Source: an uncultured delta proteobacterium (GTDB lineage: Bacteria; Desulfobacterota; BSN033; UBA1163). Taken from it: 64,000 nt of DNA. This document shows, in pieces, positions 18,547 to 28,657 of the stretch; position 1 is the stretch's first letter, and each line of letters starts with the position of its first letter. The notes below the pieces were generated by a model, which searched no databases, was not told where the DNA came from, and saw only the letters and a program-made list of their open reading frames with translations. Made by a program: the position numbers and the translations under genes. The DNA lies in contig CAWHGS010000048.1 in assembly GCA_963828805.1 (NCBI GenBank), positions 15,152 to 79,151 on the forward strand. The letters are read 5' to 3'.

Positions 18547-18990
18547 TTATTCAGGAAACCTCTGCCTCGCGAGTGAGTCGCGGTGCAGATCAAGCTCCAA
18601 GCCGTATAGCGGTGAGCGTCGCATGTATTCGACGAAACTACCTCTTGGGTGTTTTAGCCGTTTGTACTCCTTGCTCGAAATGACGATAGCGGCCGGTTCC
18701 CCGTGAACCGTGATCTCCTGGGGGCCGTTCTTCGCTGCCTTCTTGACTACTTCGCTTAGGCGGGCTTCGTCATGCCGTTCAGATACTGGTTTAAGAGAAC
18801 CTTGCTTTGATCTGCCCTTACCAATAAATGGGAAATCCTTAACCGAAGAAGGCGGATGTGGACGAGTTTCGGAAATGTCTCGTTTTACGATCTCCCGAAT
18901 CAACCCCGCAATCGATTTTTTCTCCTTGAATGCCCGATGTCTTAGCAACTCATAGACTTCTTCCTCCACCTGGATTTGGACGCGTTTCAT
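18547..18990 (-). CDS. Chimeric antitoxin: RHH/CopG-like N-half fused to Phd/YefM-like C-half
   Basis: MKRVQIQVEEEVYELL...SIAGLIREIV...VSERHDE then ARLSEVVKKA...PQEITVHGEPAAIVIS...EY. Confidence 0.72.
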   Translation of the reverse strand: MKRVQIQVEEEVYELLRHRAFKEKKSIAGLIREIVKRDISETRPHPPSSVKDFPFIGKGRSKQGSLKPVSERHDEARLSEVVKKAAKNGPQEITVHGEPAAIVISSKEYKRLKHPRGSFVEYMRRSPLYGLELDLHRDSLARQRFPE

Positions 18991-19447: not shown

Positions 19448-19724
19448 GGCCTGCCTTAGCATATGGGTGCTTATATTGGAAACGTCCCCTTGTCCTTAAC
19501 TGGGAGATAAAGGGGATGGTCTGTTAGTGGCAAAGAAAACGGTACCGAATATGGTAGTGATGGATTCGTAAGATGTTAGCACCGATCTAAGTATTCCCTC
19601 CTTCTCATTGCTGTTCTTCAAGCCCACAGAAAAATAGAGATCCTTTTCCTTCTCATTCCTCTTGGTCCTTTTCTTCCTTTGGCTTGTATGATTACTGTCA
19701 TTCCAATGCCGAAGGGAAACTAAG

Positions 19725-20351
19725 ATGCGAGGGAAACGGTGTCCGTATTGCCATAAGTTCTTTTCACCCAATCCGAAAGTAAGGCAACGGCAGAGAACTT
19801 GTGGCCGTCCTTCCTGTCAGAAGGCGTTAAAGGGAGAGAGAAATGCCCGATGGCGAGAGGAAAACCCTGATTGCTGCCGTGGGGATTACTCAAGGGTCAA
19901 AGTCTGGCTTGATGGTCATCCGGGTTATCTCCGGCGTTACAGACAAAGCCATCCTACCTATGTCGAGAAGAATCGTCAGGCCCAAAGGTTCCGGGACCGA
20001 CGAGAAAAGGTTCATCTTGATATACAAGCCAAGATAAAGAGGGAACCTGCTGAAATCATTAATGAAATAACTGAGCAATCATTGAGTTTGTCCCATCTTG
20101 ATATACAAGACGAGACATTCTTACAACCCATTGAAATCCATTATGTTTTATCCACGTTAGCCTGCCTAAAGCCTCTTGATATACAAACTCAGTTGGACAA
20201 ATCGATTCCTTCGAAGGACAATGGCCTTATTCCACCGGGAGGTCAGTCCCATGGCCATCAAAAGACTCCTTTGTCCAGACCGAGTTCGAAAGATCGAAGG
20301 CTCCTTCAGTTGGATCGATCACCGCTTTGTCACCGAAGGGTTCCTCCATGA
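19725..20351 (+). CDS. Element A ORF1: Cys4 zinc-finger, basic protein
   Basis: CPYC-x16-C-x4-C, W...NPD, HPGYLRRYR; homologous to 28256-28657. Confidence 0.75.
   Translation: MRGKRCPYCHKFFSPNPKVRQRQRTCGRPSCQKALKGERNARWREENPDCCRGDYSRVKVWLDGHPGYLRRYRQSHPTYVEKNRQAQRFRDRREKVHLDIQAKIKREPAEIINEITEQSLSLSHLDIQDETFLQPIEIHYVLSTLACLKPLDIQTQLDKSIPSKDNGLIPPGGQSHGHQKTPLSRPSSKDRRLLQLDRSPLCHRRVPP
20013..20194 (+). repeat. Triad of direct repeats TCTTGATATACAA in element A (starts 20013, 20094, 20172)
   Basis: CATCTTGATATACAAGCCAAGAT / CATCTTGATATACAAGACGAGAC / CCTCTTGATATACAAACTCAGTT; spacing 81 and 78. Confidence 0.85.
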
Positions 20352-20649
20352 TCTTTCCATGATCGAGATCCTCCTCTATTTCTTTCTGGTCGCTGTCTCG
20401 GATCGTCATGGACTGAGTTTTTATCATGATGATCGGATAGCCTCGCTTCTGAAGATGGATCTGCCCGCTCTGGGTAAAGCGAGGGATGCTCTGGTGAAGC
20501 GTTCTCTCCTGGCCTATGAACCGCCTCTCTATCAGGTTCTTTCGCTGCCACCGAAGCCCATTGCTCCTCCATCCAGAGAAGAGAGGGAAAGACAAGAACA
20601 GGAGCTGGCTCATCACTATTTCAAAAAGATCAGGGAGATGCTCCAATGA
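20251..20649 (+). CDS. Element A ORF2: putative winged-helix DNA-binding protein
   Basis: SFSWIDHRF...LLYFFLVAVSDRHGLSFY...AR-ALV...YQV; RBS GGAGG; homologous to 27670-28206. Confidence 0.75.
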   Translation: MAIKRLLCPDRVRKIEGSFSWIDHRFVTEGFLHDLSMIEILLYFFLVAVSDRHGLSFYHDDRIASLLKMDLPALGKARDALVKRSLLAYEPPLYQVLSLPPKPIAPPSREERERQEQELAHHYFKKIREMLQ

Positions 20650-20721
20650 AGATCGCTACCTGAACCTCCCTCGGTTACGGGGAGAAGAAAGAGAAAATAG
20701 ATGAAAACGAAAGGAGGATCC

Positions 20722-22137
20722 ATGGACCCTGCAATGTTGAATCAAGTGAGACATCTCTACGAGGTGGAGCGGTTAAGCCAGCGGCAGATCGCTCAGAAAC
20801 TGGGGATCTCCCGAAAGCGCGTTTCAAGGCTTCTCCATCCGGAGTCTTTGAAAAAACCTTTTCGGGAGACGATCTTCCAATCCTTTGAGCGGCTGGTCCG
20901 GGAGTGGTACCGGGAACACCCCTCTCTGAAAGCGACCCAGGTCTATGAGCGGTTAAAGACCTACGGATTCCCCGGAGGGTATGGAACCGTCAAGCGCCAC
21001 ACCCGGGATCTTCGGAAGAAACAGCGGCGTTGGTTTCATGAACTTGATTTCTTACCGGGCGAGGAGGCTCAGGTAGACTGGATGCAGTGGTCCTTTCCCT
21101 TTGGTGTGCTCTATGGATTTGTCTTGATCCTGGCCTATTCCCGGTATCTTTTTGCCCGATTCTACCCTCGACACTCCCTGGAGTTCTTCTTGGAGGGCCA
21201 CATCGAAGCCTTCAAAGAAATCGAAGGCATGACCCATCGGCTCCGGTATGACAATCTTCGAAGCGTGATCCTCCAACGAAATCCTGAAACCATTTACAAT
21301 CGCCCAATTTTTGGATTTCGCACGACACTACGGCTTCTCCATTCATCCCTGCACACCGGGAAGGGCCAACGAGAAAGGACGCGTAGAAAGGGTGATCAGG
21401 GACATCAAGGACTTCCTCCGGGTCACGCCCTGTGAAGATCTTCGTGAGGCCAACCGCAAACTTTCTCTTTGGCGTCATGAGCGAAACCAGCGGATTCATC
21501 GGAGCACCGACAAATCTCCGATCGAAGCCCTCAGAGAAGAAAGACTCAAAACCCTACCTCAGATTCATTACCAGCCTTACCGGGTCGTCCAGGCTTTGAT
21601 CAGTAAGACCGGTTTTGTCGCGTTGGATACCAACCGTTACTCGGTCCCTTCCTCCTTCTCGGGCTCGGGTTGCGAAATCCTCGCCTATCCCGATCACATC
21701 GAGATCTGTGTCAAAGACAGAAAGATCGCTACCCATCCCCGATCCTTCGAGAGAAAACAGAAGATCGAACATCCCACCCATCGGGAGAAACTCCTTCAGA
21801 TCACGCCTCACTTCAAAGCGAAGCGAATCTATGAGCTCATCAAGGCGCATGGATAAAAGTGTCGCCCTCTTTCTCCAAGAAGCGGAATCCGACGGGCAGA
21901 ATCCCATGGAGGTCGCCTATGACCTCTTCAAGCTCCTGACCCAAAGCTCCAAGGCCATGTTCCTCTCGGCCATCCGGGAGGCCAATGGTTTGAAGATCTG
22001 CAAGATCCGCTACCTTCAGAGCCTTCTTGCAACCCTCTCGATCTCGGGAGGATCATCCTGTCCATCCTCAGAACCCTCACCTCTTAACCATCACCTATCC
22101 CGGGAGGTCTCTCAAAGACTATGACGACCTTGAATGA
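20722..22137 (+). CDS. istA: IS21-family transposase IstA (several frameshifts)
   Basis: N-terminal HTH, PGEEAQVDW, LAYSRY, YDNLRS, ANEKGRVER, DTNRYSVP. Confidence 0.88.
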
Positions 22138-22579
22138 ACTCTGGCGCTTCTTCAAGTTGCTCTCTGAGATCGAAAGTTTCTCCGATCAGGAAAAAACCTT
22201 CTTACTCCGTTTCCTTACCGAGGAGTCTCAACTCCGGGAACAAAAACGAATCCAACACCTGCTCCGTATGTCGGGCATCAAACGAATCAAACGACTGAGC
22301 GACTTCGACTGGACGTTCAATCCCAGGATCCCCCGAGACAAACTCATGGAGTTTGTCCAAACCCAGTGGCTCAAGACCCCCTGCAATCTCGTCCTCATCG
22401 GCCCGGCCGGCGTCGGCAAATCTCACCTCGCCACGGCTCTTTGTTACGAAGCCATCCTCAAAGGCCATCAAACCGTCTTCCTCTCTCTCTTTGATCTCAC
22501 GGCCAAACTCTCCAAAGCCAAGAGCCCTTACACCCTGATCGAGCACTATGAGAAAATCCCCATCCTCTGCCTCGATTAA
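22121..22579 (+). pseudogene. istB: IS21-family ATPase IstB, truncated at Walker B by RIT
   Basis: LSDFDWTFNP, Walker A GPAGVGKSHLA, ends ILCLD then TAA supplied by the RIT end. Confidence 0.9.
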
Positions 22580-22607
22580 TGTGAAGCTGTCAGTAATGTG
22601 GAGTTGA
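22577..22607 (+). repeat. RIT left terminal inverted repeat
   Basis: TAATGTGAAGCTGTCAGTAATGTGGAGTTGA. Confidence 0.95.
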
Positions 22608-22720
22608 GCCCGCAAGAGCCTGCACTCGGGGTCTGCCGGCGTTTTCAACTTCACATTTTTGGGGTAGCATCGGAACTACTGCCGTCCGGCAGTTGAATCC
22701 ATTTTTTATGGAGGTGTCCG

Positions 22721-23960
22721 ATGCTACGTTCTCTATTGCCCAAAGCTCATCCCAAGTTTTTGGCCATGCCTGTATTGGGGCCGATCGTCGATGGCTTTGA
22801 CGATTGGCTCAGCGCCAGTGGCTACACCCGAGGCTCACGCGAATTTTCCATCCGTATACTACCGCGTGTGGATGCGGAACTGCGGCGTCATCAGATTGAT
22901 GATGTCGCCAAGCTGACCCACCCAGTTCTTCACGATTGCTGGAAACTTTTGATGAAAACCTGCCCTGAACGCGCAGGAACCGTGCGGTCCTTGGAACGAT
23001 ATTTACTTGCACAAGGGCTGATCGCTGATGACCGGCAAGCGACAACTCCACCCTCCGTTTCGATTTTGAGTGAAGAGTACGCGAATCACCTGCGCGAAGT
23101 GTGCGGATTCGCTGCGTCCACCATTTCCAGCCACCGGTGTACAGCCAGAGTGTTTTCTCCGGCACCTGGAAGAAGAGGGAGCCACACTGCGATGCATTCA
23201 GACCAGCAATATCGAATCGTACATCGCCAAGACCGGCAAACGCCTGAGCCGGGCAAGTCTCCAACACGATATCGGTGCGCTGAGAGGATTTCTTCGATTC
23301 CTCACCACCAATGGCAGAGTTCCCACCGGACTGGATCGCCAGATCGATACTCCGCGACTTTACCGGCTTGAGCAACTCCCTCGGGCCTTACCCTGGGAAA
23401 CGGTTCGCACACTTCTGCAATCCATTGACACGGCATCGGCGATGGGATTGCGAGATTACGCCATGTTTCTGCTGATTGCCACTTACGGATTGCGCAGCAG
23501 CGAGGTCGTTGCCCTTACCCTCGATGATATTCGCTGGCGTGCAGGCAGTTTACAAATCCATCAGCGCAAGACTTCCTCGCCCTTGGAACTGCCCCTTACC
23601 AACGAAGTTCTGGCCGCACTGGTGAAGCATCTGAAGCGGACTCCACCGCCAGCGCCGTATCGAAGGGTCTTCCTCAGAATGCGCGCTCCCATCGGGGAGC
23701 TAAAACCCACGGCCATTACGGAAGCTTTTCAATCTCTGGTTCGAAAAAGCGGTCTCCGTATTCCTTTTCAAGGCCCACATTGTCTGCGCCACTCCTTTGC
23801 GGTCCATCTGCTCAAAAACGGAACCCCTCTCAAAACAATCGGTGATATCCTCGGGCATCGTACGGCCGAGAGCACGTCGATGTATCTACGCTTGGCGATT
23901 GAGGATTTGCGCGAAGTCGCTCTTCAGGTTCCGGGTAATGGAAAGGGGGGCCAGCTATGA
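22721..23960 (+). CDS. RIT tyrosine recombinase A (frameshift near 23150)
   Basis: LPRALPW, RDYAM, YGLRSSE, HCLRHSFA, ILGH, STSMY. Confidence 0.9.
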
Positions 23961-24966
23961 CAAAAGAAAATGTGGCATTCTCGTCTCGTCTTGCGCCCGT
24001 CTTCGAGCGGTACGTGAATTTGAAGCGGGCTTTGGGCCGCCGTTTCGATCATGAGACTCGGCACTCTGCAATCCCTGGACCGATTCCTGCATGACCATGC
24101 TACCACATACCCAGATCTGAATGCTGCCGCGTTTCAAGCATGGTGCCACACCCAGGAGAAACTTGCTTCGGGGGTTCGGCGGGTTCGCATGCTGCAGGTT
24201 TACAACTTGTGCCTGTATCGCCGTCGAACCGAGCCGCACTGTTTCCTTCCAGACCCCAGCGCCTTTCCCCCATACCATCAACGCCTCCAGCCGTACATCT
24301 TCTCCGAGGACGAAGTGGCGCGACTCTTGCGTGCGGCCTCGGGGTTGAATCGAGTCCCGTCCTCGCCCCTTCGCCCAGAGGTGATTCGACTGGCCATCGT
24401 GCTCTTATTCACTACTGGCATCCGACGCGGGGAGTTGCTGCGTCTCATCCTGAGCGACTATAACCGGCAGAATTCGACGTTGCTCATTCGAGAGTCGAAG
24501 TTTTACAAATCCCGGCTGCTTCCCATCAATAGCGATATCGTCTATGAGATCGAGCAGTATCTGGATGCCCGAGCCCGGCGCCAGCTGCCGACTTCTTCCG
24601 ATACGCCTTTGATATGGAATGCCGCCCAGGGTGGACGAGCATACAGTGGAACGTGTCTGCGGCTCTGCCTACAAGCCGCTGCTCCAGCAATGCGGCATTG
24701 TCACTCCGAAAGGAAGGCTGCCGCGGATTCACGACTTTCGCCACGGCTTTGCCGTAAATGCCCTGCTACGCTGGTACCGAATGGGCGCCGATGTCGAGGC
24801 CAAACTGCCGTTGCTGGCAACTTATCTGGGGCACGGCTCGGCAGTATCGACGCACTACTACTTGCGGTTCATCGAGCCGCTCCGTACGGCCGCCAGCGAG
24901 CGGTTTGCCAATCATTACGGTTCGCTGGTCTCTGCGCTACCGCCCGTGGAAAGGAGGCCCAGATGA
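23957..24966 (+). CDS. RIT tyrosine recombinase B (two frameshifts)
   Basis: PYIFS, TGIRRGE, ESKFYKSRLLP, HDFRHGFA, LATYLGH, THYY. Confidence 0.9.
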
Positions 24967-25975
24967 AACGTCCCTTCCCAATCTACTTGGTGCGATAATC
25001 AGGGATTACTTCACGGATCACCTTCCCCGTCTTCAAGGAACCAGTCCGCACACGATCCACAGTTACCGCGATAGCATGGTTCTGCTCCTTCGTTTTCTTT
25101 CCAAGCAACGGAACAAACCGGTGACGGGACTCGATCTGACTGATTTGGATCCGTCAGGAATTCTCGCGTTTCTCTCCTATCTTGAACAGGAGCGGAAGAA
25201 CAGAGTATCAACGCGAAACGTCCGGCTCTCGGCCATCCACGCGTTCTTTGGCTTCGTGGCATCACGGAATCCCGAGCATCTCGATTTAGCACAGCGTGTC
25301 CTCGGGATCCCTTTCAAGCGCACCCAGCAACGGGCAATCGACTACTTGGAATACGATGAAATCGAGTCAATTCTCAACGCGATCAACCGAAGCACGCCGC
25401 AAGGAACCCGTGACTATGCCCTTCTCGCGACGATGTTCAACACGGGCGCCCGTGTGCAGGAGATCGCTGATCTGCGTGCCTGCGACTTGCAGTTGACCAA
25501 GCCGTTTCAAGTGAGATTGTTTGGTAAAGGCAGGAAGGAACGATACTGCCCTCTATGGCCCCAAACCGCCATGGTATTGCGATCTTTCTGCAATCAGCGG
25601 AACCTGGACTTGCGCTCAGAAGCTCGCGTCTTTCTGAACCATCGTAACGAGTCGTTAACCCGCTTCGGGATTCGTCATATCCTAGCCAGGTGCCTCGCTT
25701 CCGCTTGCCAAGACGCCCCGAATCTCCGCAAGAAAAGGCTGCATCCACACAGCATTCGGCATAGCACGGCCGTAGCCCTCCTAAAATCGGGAGTTGATTT
25801 ATCAACGATAAGCCACCTGCTCGGACATGCGAGCCCAACCACGACGAATCGCTACGCGAAAGTCGATCTGGAAATGAAGCGTCGGGCCATCGCACGGGTC
25901 AAACCGGTTCCACGGCGGTCACGTACGCCTTGGGCCAAAGACCACACGGTGTTGGACTGGCTGGAATCTTTGTAG
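24963..25975 (+). CDS. RIT tyrosine recombinase C (frameshift just after start)
   Basis: SPHTIHSYRD, TRNVRLSAIH, TGARVQE, GKGRKER, HSIRHS, LLGH, TNRYA. Confidence 0.92.
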
Positions 25976-26034
25976 GCGCATTTTAATGTGGAGTTGACAG
26001 CCCAAGAAAGCTCGGTTTCATGGAGTTCCGCACG

Positions 26035-26065
26035 TCAACTCCACATTACTGACAGCTTCACATTA
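26035..26065 (-). repeat. RIT right terminal inverted repeat
   Basis: TCAACTCCACATTACTGACAGCTTCACATTA, exact reverse complement of the left repeat. Confidence 0.95.
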
Positions 26066-26521
26066 GTCGATACAGAGGACCCTGACCTTTGCATAATAAT
26101 CGATTTTGGAAGCCGGGTTGTAAGCCCTATGGATCCTTGAGACGAGGTCGAAGGCGGTGATACAAGCCGTGGGATAACCCCGGAGAATCGCCTCATAACA
26201 AAAGGCTGAAGCGATATGGGATTTACCAAGCCCAGTGTCTCCGATGAGGACAAGGTTGAAGGCATTTTCGACCCAGGGCGAGTTGACGAAGGTCAGGATG
26301 TCGTCCTTGCTGATCTTGGGATTGAAGTGCCAGTCGAACTGCTCCAGAGTCTTGACATGTTTTATGCCCGACAGACTCAGGAGTCTTTTGATTTTATGCT
26401 GCCTTCTGTATTCGATCTCCATCTTGAGGAAGTGAGGATTGCTTTCACGGCGGTCGGAGGCGATCTCATCGGGCGGGGTCTTGCAGCCCAATTCCTTAAG
26501 CAGGGATTCAAGATCATTCAT
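26063..26521 (-). pseudogene. istB: IS21-family ATPase IstB, truncated at Walker B by RIT
   Basis: LEQFDWHFNP, Walker A GDTGLGKSHIA, ends VLCID then TAA supplied by the RIT end. Confidence 0.9.
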
Positions 26522-27929
26522 CGTACTCCTCCAATCCTCTGGGTTTATAAGAGATATTCAGAAGCTCGTCCTTCTGAGGCTGGACGGTCTCGGCCTCGGT
26601 AAACTCCATGTGCAGATACGACAGAAACGTCCTGAGTCTGGGGGACTTCTTGTTGAGACACTCCGAGGCGACACTGATGAGCATTCCCCGGCTGTGGCTT
26701 TTCATAAGCTTGAAGATCTCATAAGCAGTCTTTTGAGGGTCCTCTCCGACATGTCTCGATTTTTGACCAGGAAGTCCGACATCGCAGGATGCAGGTTTTT
26801 GATCACCTCATGGATCCGGTCGATCTTGGCCTTGACGGAGAGCTTACCGTAACTCCTGTGAAGGGGATTGATGATCTGACCGTGTCTGTCAAAGGACCTC
26901 GGATGAGAGGCCACCCGCTTGGCGCCGTCGTAGATCGTGACCGTATCCGGGGTTGAATGTATGGAGAGGGATTTTCCCACGAGGTAGTCGGGCACGGAAT
27001 AGTTATTTGTATCAAAGATCATCAGGGCGGTCTTGGTGGTCTTGACCGGCGGATGGATCAAAACATTGTTCCAGGGTTTCTCGGGAAGGGGCCGGAGTTT
27101 CTCCTCCTGAAGCACCTCTACCGGCTTCTTCCGTGGTTCTGTGGACGGTATGGTTTTTATGGTCCACCCATTCATGAAGCGCCTGATTGAGGGCCTTTAG
27201 AGAAGAATGCATCTGTATGGTATTGAAGAATGTTTCTCTCAGCGTTCGGATCGCCCGTTCCACACGGCCCTTCTCGTTGCCCGCCCCAGGATTGCACAGC
27301 CGGATCTCCAGGGTGTAATGGCGTGAGAACTCCAAAAAGCGTGGATTATACTGGATCTCCGGCCTGCGCTTTAATACCACGGTTGAGAGGTTGTCATACC
27401 GGATGCCGTAGGGAATCCCCCCAAGGGCACAAAAAGCCATCAGATGCCCCTCGATAAAGAACTCAAATGAACTGCGGGCGAAAACATGGGCAAACAGATA
27501 CCGCGAGTAGCTCAGGATATAGATGAAGCCGTAAAGTTTTCCAAGGTGGGGATGGTTGATAAAACACCAGTCTGCTTGTGCCTCCTCCCCCGGGAGAAAG
27601 GTGAGCGGATGATAGGCCTTCGGCACCTTTTTACGGAACCCCCTCGTATACTTGACCACCGCAGGGTAGCTAATCTTTGCTCCCCTCGTCCTTAACCACC
27701 CGTGGACTTGCTGGGCCTTTAAGGTCGGATGCTCTTTGAACCACTCCGCGATCAGAGAGCGGTAGGGGTCCAGGATAAAGTCCCTCCTTTGTCGCCTCTC
27801 CGGACAGCATTCTCGATATATGCGCGAGGCGCGCTTTCGCGAGATCCCGGTCCGGTCTTGGATCTGGTAAAAGCTCAGATTTAGGACGTCCCGAAGATAA
27901 CGGATCGTCTGTCTTATCGTCTCTTCCAT
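26514..27929 (-). CDS. istA: IS21-family transposase IstA (frameshifts)
   Basis: PGEEAQADW, LSYSRY, YDNLST, GNEKGRVER, DTNNYSVP. Confidence 0.88.
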
Positions 27930-28206
27930 GTTCTCTCCTTTGCGGTATGTTCTTGACCTCCCAGTAAGGGCTTTTGTAGCTTACAAGAATTTCGGATATC
28001 AGTTCCTCTCTGGCATGATGGAGCACTGGGCCGCTTAAACGAAGGATCTCCATGATCGATCGATCCGAATAAAAACTTCGCCCTTGCCGATCTCCGACCA
28101 CCACCAGAAACAGATACAGGATCATCGATTCGTGGCTCAATCGATGAAGATACCTGCCATGAAGGATCTGGTGGTCGATGATGGAGTAGCTCCGGGCCCA
28201 TCGCAT
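27670..28206 (-). CDS. Element B ORF2: putative winged-helix protein, overlapping istA
   Basis: SYSIIDHQ...ILYLFLVVVGDRQGRSFY...AREELI...YWEV. Confidence 0.72.
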   Translation of the reverse strand: MRWARSYSIIDHQILHGRYLHRLSHESMILYLFLVVVGDRQGRSFYSDRSIMEILRLSGPVLHHAREELISEILVSYKSPYWEVKNIPQRREHGRDDKTDDPLSSGRPKSELLPDPRPDRDLAKARLAHISRMLSGEATKEGLYPGPLPLSDRGVVQRASDLKGPASPRVVKDEGSKD

Positions 28207-28240
28207 GGGTCAATCGTAGAATAGCCGAATCAATGGATCA

Positions 28241-28411
28241 ATCGAATCTTGTATCTCACAGCGCCTTTTGTCCTCCGGCAACGTAGGAGCCGCATTCACA
28301 CTGCCTTACCAGCCTTATCTCGTCTTGTATCTCGTTTTTGAGCATTCTCTCCGGTATCACGAGAACCATGGTCCTGACTGGCTCCGAAGGGGGTATCTCG
28401 TCTTGTATCTC
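28241..28411 (-). repeat. Triad of direct repeats GAGATACAAGA in element B (starts 28411, 28333, 28257)
   Basis: GAGATACAAGACGAGATA twice and GAGATACAAGATTCGAT; spacing 78 and 76. Confidence 0.85.
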
Positions 28412-28657
28412 ACGGACCTTTTTCCTCCAGAGCCGCTGATAATCGGGATGCTTCTTACGCCACTCCTTGATTTCGCTGTACCGGCCCTTGAAACAGTCCG
28501 GATTCGCCTCCAACCATTTCTTCTGGCTCTCCCTCTTGCGCTTGGCCCTGCACGTCGTATCACTGCAACTCTTTTGGGTTTTCCTCGCCCTCGGATCAGG
28601 CCTGTAATACCGTCCGCAGTAGACGCACCTCTTCTGTCCGTTCTCTGTCGCTTCCAT
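28256..28657 (-). CDS. Element B ORF1: Cys4 zinc-finger, basic protein
   Basis: CVYC-x16-C-x4-C, W...NPD, HPDYQRLWR. Confidence 0.75.
   Translation of the reverse strand: MEATENGQKRCVYCGRYYRPDPRARKTQKSCSDTTCRAKRKRESQKKWLEANPDCFKGRYSEIKEWRKKHPDYQRLWRKKVREIQDEIPPSEPVRTMVLVIPERMLKNEIQDEIRLVRQCECGSYVAGGQKAL

Follow-up and report, generated by a model that had tools for sequence, protein, structure and literature searches.

The stretch of DNA considered here (the window; 64,000 nucleotides of contig CAWHGS010000048.1, assembly GCA_963828805.1, from an uncultured delta proteobacterium) carries an IS21-family insertion sequence (IS), element A, whose first open reading frame, ORF1 (19725..20351, + strand; 208 amino acids, aa), encodes a zinc-ribbon protein and contains in its 3' half three regularly spaced copies of a short word. 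According to the comparison of homologous genes, this triad is very probably an array of nucleic-acid sites under nucleotide-level selection, and no peptide repeat. The array follows ORF1, not the recombinase, in the loci compared, and ORF1 with the array, usually accompanied by the winged-helix gene ORF2 (20221..20649, +), is by its sequence context a portable accessory module upstream of varied recombinase genes. Taken as a whole, the statement that the triad is a cis-acting site array, read by an element protein (likely ORF1) and gating the downstream genes, seems to us plausible, if somewhat short of probable.

The 13-base word TCTTGATATACAA occurs exactly three times on the + strand, at 20015–20027, 20096–20108, and 20174–20186, that is, at spacings of 81 and 78 bp, and its copies are translated in the ORF1 frame as HLDIQ, HLDIQ, and PLDIQ, respectively. 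With up to two mismatches allowed, the window contains five matches, compared to the mean of 1.01 in 100 shuffles, of which one reached five. The conserved core of each site is the 14-nt TCTTGATATACAAG, followed by the weaker nnnAGnT; copies 1 (20015..20028) and 2 (20096..20109) carry this core, and copy 3 (20174..20187, all on the + strand) reads TCTTGATATACAAA, its last base being different. The assembly from which the window comes (2.5 Mb, 64% complete) contains TGATATACAAG in triad copies 1 and 2 only, copy 3 ending with CAAA.

A second IS21-type element of the window, element B, lies in the opposite orientation, and its ORF1 (28256..28657, −; 133 aa) is 40% identical to ORF1 of element A over residues 4–75. 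Its word GAGATACAAGACGAGA is exact at 28396–28411 and 28318–28333 (−), and a third copy with three mismatches is found at 28242–28257 (−); in the extended form, the sites are GAGATACAAGACGAGATA at 28394..28411 and 28316..28333 and GAGATACAAGATTCGATT at 28240..28257 (all −). The third copy begins within the TGA stop codon of ORF1-B (28256–28258) and hence lies outside the gene and is not read as EIQ. Copy 2 of element A (20100–20115) differs from GAGATACAAGACGAGA at one of 16 bases, and ATACAA is present in all six copies of both elements. Thus, the observations from which the sequence-only reading of this DNA had started, namely, the regular spacing of the three repeats, the near identity of copy 2 and the element B repeat, and the constancy of ATACAA, all hold.

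The main evidence for nucleotide-level selection comes from codon usage. At the DNA level we considered 28 loci from genomes and 80 loci from metagenomes, mostly short metagenome contigs. In 13 ORF1 genes with approximately 50–60% amino acid identity, L, D, I, and Q are encoded in each of the three repeats by CTT, GAT, ATA, and CAA, respectively, with one ATC exception, and the codons of other conserved residues in the same genes vary freely. In a set of 43 ORF1 genes, retained from 89 after dropping pairs with more than 90% nucleotide identity, 11 out of 12 L-D-I-Q columns have a single codon (CTT, GAT, ATA, CAA) in at least 97% of sequences, and at I153 ATA is found in 80%. Only four out of 65 other conserved ORF1 columns have one codon in at least 95% of sequences (Q114, P146, C147, and N166), P146 and C147 adjoining copy 3, and N166 overlapping the ORF2 start codon. 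The 80 metagenome loci, with 208 copies, yield GAT and CAA in 208 out of 208, ATA in 189, and ATC in 19. Outside the words the median synonymous divergence (dS) amounts to 1.12 for the N-terminal domain and 0.87 for the spacers, and therefore silent sites elsewhere in the gene are near saturation. The spacers are under purifying selection (ratio of nonsynonymous to synonymous divergence, dN/dS, 0.30), their dS being no higher than that of the N-terminal domain.

These data bear on the simplest alternative, a plain peptide repeat (L)(D/E)IQ in the C-terminal half of ORF1, whose codon identity would reflect recent duplication or a bias in codon usage. The hallmark of the ORF1 protein family is indeed a set of three (L/V)DIQ motifs with a spacing of 23 or 26 residues, almost all copies are read as D-I-Q in frame (245 out of 250, see below), the spacers are subject to protein-level purifying selection, and the 23-codon units resemble old tandem duplications. 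However, the codons of the words are fixed across genes that are near synonymous saturation elsewhere, and neither ATA nor CAA is favored at other positions of the same genes (I111 is ATC in 72%, Q87 is CAA in only 50%); besides, there are copies past the stop codon and in other frames, and the C-terminal half of ORF1 is modeled with low confidence. We regard a peptide repeat as extremely improbable. The sequence-only reading had proposed selection at the DNA or RNA level and named the opposite case, a conserved (D/E)IQ peptide with free synonymous variation; in the comparison of synonymous sites that it called for, the words are codon-fixed next to spacers with dS of 0.87, which contradicts the latter case and, together with the copies outside the reading frame, strongly supports the former. 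The case illustrates how a tripeptide (DIQ) and a rare codon (ATA) can become fixed throughout a protein family by a DNA word, which would mislead a motif analysis based on proteins only.

The out-of-frame copies are as follows. GATAT[AC]CAA is present in 250 copies in 93 loci, of which 245 are read as D-I-Q, one is in another frame (LIYK, in L021), and four are past the ORF1 stop codon (in L017, L019, L021, and L027), all five exceptions coming from distant lineages. The same word is translated as LIYK in the database proteins P0055, P0060, P0124, P0170, and P0191. The third copy in L023 and the fourth copy in L028 are also at or past the ORF1 stop, and these loci feature words of their own, CTTGAAAAGAACAACTTAGC in three copies with the last one across the stop, and GAAAAAAAAGAGCAATTAA in four copies with the last one past the stop, respectively. 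Other words are CTTGATAAACAAATCGC-like in three copies (L018), GCGTTACAAGAT in three copies (L117, L118, L120), and GTGAGATACAAG in four copies (L114 and L115, 46% identical to ORF1-B). Among 117 distant ORF1 representatives of at least 130 aa, 52 have at least two [DE]IQ motifs, 29 have another 4-mer at a spacing of 15–35 aa (AKQD, VKNN, VKKD, AKRD, VIQD, and others), and 36 have neither by this strict 4-mer test. Since the same architecture is seen with other words in distant lineages, the conserved unit is, as far as sequence comparison goes, an array of three to four direct nucleotide words approximately 50–81 bp apart, the word co-varying with the ORF1 lineage.

The array is not tied to a particular recombinase. 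The first large open reading frame downstream of ORF1 in 82 loci encodes an IstA-like protein in 63, a tyrosine recombinase in eight, an IS110 DEDD enzyme in three, a serine recombinase and a ParB helix-turn-helix (HTH) protein in one each, and a protein from no Pfam family in six; a full tyrosine-recombinase trio is found downstream of ORF1 in L011 and L015. The same word accompanies tyrosine-recombinase trios (L005, L008, L011–L013, L015) and IS110 enzymes (L021, L027), and in the tree of the ORF1 N-terminal domain (42 rows), a quick tree with long branches and only indicative placements, the GATATACAA word spans clades linked to IS21, tyrosine recombinases, and IS110. In multi-copy genomes (L023–L026, with 7-bp duplications, L011, L012, and L015), ORF1 and ORF2 travel with the recombinase genes as one unit. 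Finally, a search of 401 genomes from the phylum yields the paired word in two genomes only, that of the window and G258, each of which has ORF1, and the reversed control yields none.

This distribution is hard to reconcile with another suggestion of the sequence-only reading, that the repeats are internal IstA sites, or a transpositional enhancer of the type of the internal enhancer of phage Mu, bound by the IS21 transposase in addition to the terminal repeats. The position of the triad, 494–665 bp inside the left end, is roughly that of the Mu enhancer. The ends of IS21, Mu, and Tn7 each carry several transposase-binding repeats, those in the IS21 terminal inverted repeats being 23 bp apart (available part of PMC10122671). 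The triad resembles the IstA-binding repeats L1–L2 and R1–R2 of IS21 in being several direct copies of a short word in one IS21-family element, but the latter lie in the terminal repeats at both ends, 23 bp apart, as that part of the paper describes them, whereas the triad is located in a single place approximately 500–670 bp inside, at 78–81 bp, differs from them in sequence, and occurs in non-IS21 elements as well. The terminal repeats observed here, TGTTAGTGGCA (element A type) and TGCATTATGTTGTG (L015 type), are unlike the triad word; in the intact elements of L034 and L015 the word at up to two mismatches of 12 is found in the triad only, and never inverted, so there is no inverted copy at the right end; and an identical word persists where there is no IstA and the recombinase is an IS110 DEDD enzyme or a tyrosine-recombinase trio. 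Hence we consider binding by IstA very improbable.

The best candidates to read the sites are the module's own proteins. Residues 1–95 of ORF1 form a zinc-ribbon (C6, C9, C26, C31) plus helices, and in the AlphaFold2 model the predicted local distance difference test score (pLDDT) exceeds 90 for residues 1–90, with means of ten-residue blocks of 47–78 from residue 91 onward; such a low-confidence C-terminal half fits a 3' half shaped partly by DNA. A word-indexed search yielded 46 relatives of ORF1, and an exhaustive search, 1,123 cluster representatives (50% identity) at E ≤ 0.001, from metagenome-assembled genomes labeled Thermodesulfobacteriota, Acidobacteriota, Nitrospirae, Elusimicrobia, and Patescibacteria, among many phyla, and from one Bathyarchaeota bin. 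ORF1 matches no Pfam or NCBIfam family, its relatives are unnamed and belong to no Pfam family, the nearest Atlas clusters are “hypothetical protein,” again with no Pfam family, and searches of PHROGs and of PDB sequences and folds gave nothing significant. ORF1 of the window and its closest relatives (P0003–P0005) are 201–208 aa long and overlap ORF2 by approximately 130 nt, and most members of the family end at 164–170 aa, a few codons past the ORF2 start codon.

ORF2, of approximately 135 aa, is modeled as one winged helix plus a helix (pLDDT 82). It is similar to PHROG 19658, “replication initiation protein” (E 8.5e-5), only at profile positions 13–72, that is, in the winged helix; its top fold matches in BFVD are RepL, replication-initiator, and replisome-organizer winged HTH proteins (E from 6e-4 to 2e-2), with replication protein O at rank 46; and in PDB the N-terminal domain of a staphylococcal plasmid Rep (E 0.04–0.07) is found beside MarR/Crp-type regulators, all matches having E ≥ 0.018. 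No Pfam or NCBIfam family matches ORF2, and its profile yields no hits among PDB sequences. It is present in 88 out of 93 array loci and absent from L006, L067, L017, L019, and L108, where the exact repeats are kept in all five; in L006 and L067 its place is taken by a ParB-like gene. L018 also lacks ORF2. Consequently, the suggestion that the repeats are iteron-like sites for the adjacent winged-helix protein stands as regards the sites, but not as regards ORF2 as an obligatory partner. We infer that a protein of the element itself reads the sites, most likely ORF1 through its N-terminal domain, possibly helped by ORF2; ORF1 is favored since it is the only constant partner and its first 90 residues are confidently folded, and we put the case for this putative reader as evenly balanced.

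Two side observations concern the ORF2 position. A ParB-like gene follows ORF1 and the array, replacing ORF2 or beside it, in L006, L067, L023, L029, and L096, with the ParB HTH domain identified in L096 and a ParB-like N-terminus seen by eye in the other four. In genome G206, seven IS21 copies that are 99% alike (L120, L128, L131, L133–L136), with ORF1 of the GCGTTACAAGAT type, show recurrent nonsense changes at two codons of the ORF2 motif FSWIDHQ: the W and/or Q codons are TAG in four out of seven copies (L120 has both changes, L128 and L136 only that of W, and L131 only that of Q), and L133–L135 are intact at both. L120 by itself might pass for an active IS21 lacking ORF2, and hence for evidence that ORF2 is dispensable; we dropped this argument, ORF2 being intact at both codons in three of the seven copies.

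How the sites might act is suggested by their location. ORF1 would be transcribed from its own promoter at GTATGATT (19686..19693, +), a −10-like word approximately 35 nt upstream of the ORF1 start codon, conserved in the upstream regions of 42 non-redundant loci; this conservation suggests that the word is the presumed promoter, although it is not listed by the consensus promoter scan. The array would then sit between this promoter and the ORF2 and recombinase genes, and its occupation by ORF1, with or without ORF2, would form a dosage-dependent gate (a roadblock or an autoregulatory complex) limiting downstream expression. Such a gate is the simplest model compatible with any recombinase. 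By analogy with small regulators encoded upstream of transposases, a regulatory role of ORF1 is also the simplest expectation. IS1 InsA is such a protein, as is Orf121 of IS91 in the partial description available, and ORF1, here a zinc-ribbon protein, has the same position; it differs from both in that no homology was found and the module is common to four recombinase classes, and from InsA, which acts at the IS ends, in that the coding sequence of the regulator itself contains the candidate sites.

Several observations weigh against the gating model. Frame-independent copies are few (five out of 250) and confined to distant lineages. The spacings of 50–81 bp hold no helical phase. No copy of the word is found in the ORF1 promoter region across all lineages, contrary to classical autoregulation; a partial inverted match in the 5'-untranslated region (−50 to −1), CTTGTAT at about −45, was rejected as a general partner of the sites, being present in only 20 out of 42 loci. 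CTTGTAT is part of the −10-like word, varies in its CTT portion, and is missing from the trio-linked group. No promoter is predicted on the triad itself by the consensus scan. The N-terminal domain of ORF1 has no recognizable DNA-binding fold, as Foldseek yields nothing at E ≤ 0.001, the best VIA-align Z is 4.0, and profile searches are empty. The AT-rich array and the initiator-type winged helix of ORF2 fit an origin-like role at least as well, and all copies in all lineages are in the ORF1 sense orientation, as an RNA-level site would also require.

The origin-like role is the strongest rival to a regulatory gate. The array would be a small replication origin, with iterons bound by ORF1 and/or ORF2, that lets the excised or circular element replicate or persist; weighing both sides, we hold this to be unlikely. 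In its favor, three to four direct repeats lie inside the gene of a candidate binding protein, and in all 40 loci compared the array is AT-richer than its surroundings (GC content 40.7%, or 42.7% without the words, vs. 51.9 and 52.9% in the two flanks; the dip in the window is to 32–38%), the AT-richness spanning the whole array with no discrete AT tract. The recombinases with which the module travels use circular or end-joined intermediates, and the initiators among the matches of ORF2 in PHROGs and BFVD, with the staphylococcal Rep domain among those in PDB, point in the same direction. On the other hand, ORF2 comprises only approximately 135 aa and is missing from several array-bearing lineages, its winged-helix similarity is weak and generic, with MarR/Crp-type regulators scoring equally in PDB, and no helicase or loader gene is present. 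The spacing of 57–81 bp is unlike the iteron packing of approximately 20 bp in plasmids and phage lambda. Nor is a DnaA box (by the commonly known consensus) conserved: exact boxes are found in none of 43 loci, and those with at most one mismatch, in five out of 43, vs. seven out of 43 in the control region. In the window, TTATCCACG at 20152–20160, in the spacer between copies 2 and 3, matches eight out of nine positions of this consensus, and none of 43 relatives has it exactly.

Comparison with known replicons gives a similarly mixed picture. Protein-binding site arrays within coding sequence are already known: in lambdoid phages, iterons and an AT-rich tract are located mid-gene in the initiator gene O, which provides the precedent of an origin inside the gene for its initiator (available part of PMC7466680). 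As in ori-lambda, so far as that part describes it, the direct repeats of the module lie within a coding sequence, the candidate binder being the N-terminal domain of its product; they are translated into a middle or C-terminal stretch under little constraint (extra repeats add residues), and have AT-rich surroundings. Unlike lambda O, ORF1 shows no sequence or fold relation to it (no Pfam, PHROG, or PDB match), and its host is no phage, but a transposable element of 3.4–4.2 kb. Iteron/Rep systems of plasmids are similar in that the direct repeats adjoin a small winged-helix gene with initiators among its structural neighbors; however, ORF2 has one winged helix, weak matches (E ≥ 6e-4), and no accompanying DnaA boxes, and is absent in some array lineages. 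Close packing of repeats, seen in lambda, also contrasts with the triad-type spacing of 57–81 bp. A more specific form of this idea, that ORF1, the in-gene array, and ORF2 constitute a miniature lambda-O-style replicon on IS-sized elements of at least four recombinase classes, we consider quite unlikely. Were it true, the array would be where the circular form is bound after excision or end-joining, to be replicated or retained, and such “insertion sequences” would be tiny integrating replicons.

An action at the RNA level may be envisaged as well, since all copies are in the sense orientation: the words in the mRNA of ORF1, ORF2, and the recombinase would be linear A-rich sites for ORF1 or a host factor, controlling downstream translation or stability. 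In each class seen, the sense strand of the words is rich in A, and the best Foldseek rows of ORF1, a basic zinc-ribbon protein, are zinc-ribbon chains of ribosomal or ribosome-assembly proteins, albeit weak (E > 1). In two metatranscriptome runs, contigs of close relatives (90–99% alike) cover parts of ORF1, the triad, ORF2, istA, and istB and span the triad, with possible DNA carry-over; these data are contigs only, which show neither ends nor strand nor processing, and we did not count them as evidence for small RNA. At the same time, the sense orientation is equally expected from the descent of DNA sites, and there is no stable or conserved fold (z +0.57; in 148 out of 200 shuffles the folding is as good or better). 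Nor is the CTTG/CAAG mini-hairpin preserved, as GTT replaces CTT in 27 out of 208 copies and the left arm is gone in distant lineages. RNA-level sites thus appear rather unlikely.

The same lack of structure (z +0.57) counts against a small repeat-spacer RNA guiding or targeting the element, another proposal of the sequence-only reading. The regular repeat-spacer geometry is suggestive of it, and guide RNAs are known in other IS families, namely, the bridge RNA of IS110 and the omega RNA of TnpB. However, the spacers are conserved coding sequence (dN/dS 0.30), share no 12-mer with the rest of the window, and, when compared with seven insertion-site flanks, a search that the same reading had called for, have no common word of at least nine bases, save one single 9-mer. 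Besides, IS110-linked members of the family keep approximately 190–215 nt between ORF2 and the transposase gene, which is the usual place of the bridge RNA. The guide RNA was therefore not borne out and is hardly credible.

Returning to the ORF1-array module as a whole, the open-access literature on recombinase-in-trio (RIT) elements, IS21 upstream ORFs, and IS iterons yielded neither a description of such an in-gene array for insertion sequences nor anything on the module. Our results indicate a so far undescribed accessory module that is widespread among small mobile elements. Its link to four mechanistically unrelated types of recombinases makes it a candidate control or maintenance device, general and exchangeable, for such elements. 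Its function is directly open to test because the sites can be destroyed synonymously, leaving the protein unchanged.

As regards the elements themselves, element A (19522..22576, +) contains ORF1, ORF2, istA, and istB, in this order, and ends inside istB. It is homologous to the intact 3.44-kb relatives L032–L034 from 19512–19522 to 22576 (97% identity), and a DNA contig of run X1 breaks at both 19522 and 22576. The left end is TGTTAGTGGCA at 19522, with an inverted copy at the right end of intact relatives; in L033 and L034 TGTTAGTGGCA is found at both ends, and a second TGTTAGCACC, approximately 58 nt inside the left end. The ORF2 start codon overlaps the ORF1 codon N166 (AAT), invariant in 40 out of 40 sequences. 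The istA gene (20701..22124, +) is a pseudogene of three overlapping reading frames (20701–21435, 21311–21856, 21615–22124), whose pieces match rve and Mu-transpos_C_2, as do the intact 477-aa IstA proteins of relatives, the window copy being frameshifted. The istB stub (22121..22579, +; 152 aa) matches positions 29–141 out of 238 of the IstB_IS21 profile (E 5.4e-26). By its domain content, that is, a DDE (rve) core with a Mu-transposase-like C-terminal domain, IstB, and terminal inverted repeats, element A as a whole is a member of the IS21 family.

Element B, in addition to ORF1, contains an ORF2 homologue encoding a winged-helix protein (27914..28206, −), and istA in two pieces (27012–27929, 26702–27175) with an istB stub (26063–26521), together at 26063..27929 (−). 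These two elements carry the only ORF1 homologues in the window's assembly. Both istB stubs are 152 aa long and end at similar positions of the IstB_IS21 profile (141 and 160 out of 238), and the interval between them, 22577–26062, contains three tyrosine-recombinase genes (23070–23960, 24051–24998, and 24758–25975), the middle one (24051–24998) looking frameshifted, with the second piece at 24619–24966. From this gene content, the interval appears to be occupied by a recombinase-in-trio element, flanked by two convergent IS21 copies that differ from each other and are each cut in istB. The trio-type elements with ORF1 and ORF2 found elsewhere (L015, 907–5114; L011, 5743–about 9940) have ends TGCA(A)TTATGTTGTG with a second TTATGTTGTG approximately 25 nt inside, that is, multi-repeat ends resembling those of IS21. 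Directly left of element A, at 18547–18990 (−), there is an open reading frame with a Phd/YefM antitoxin domain (E 3e-8).

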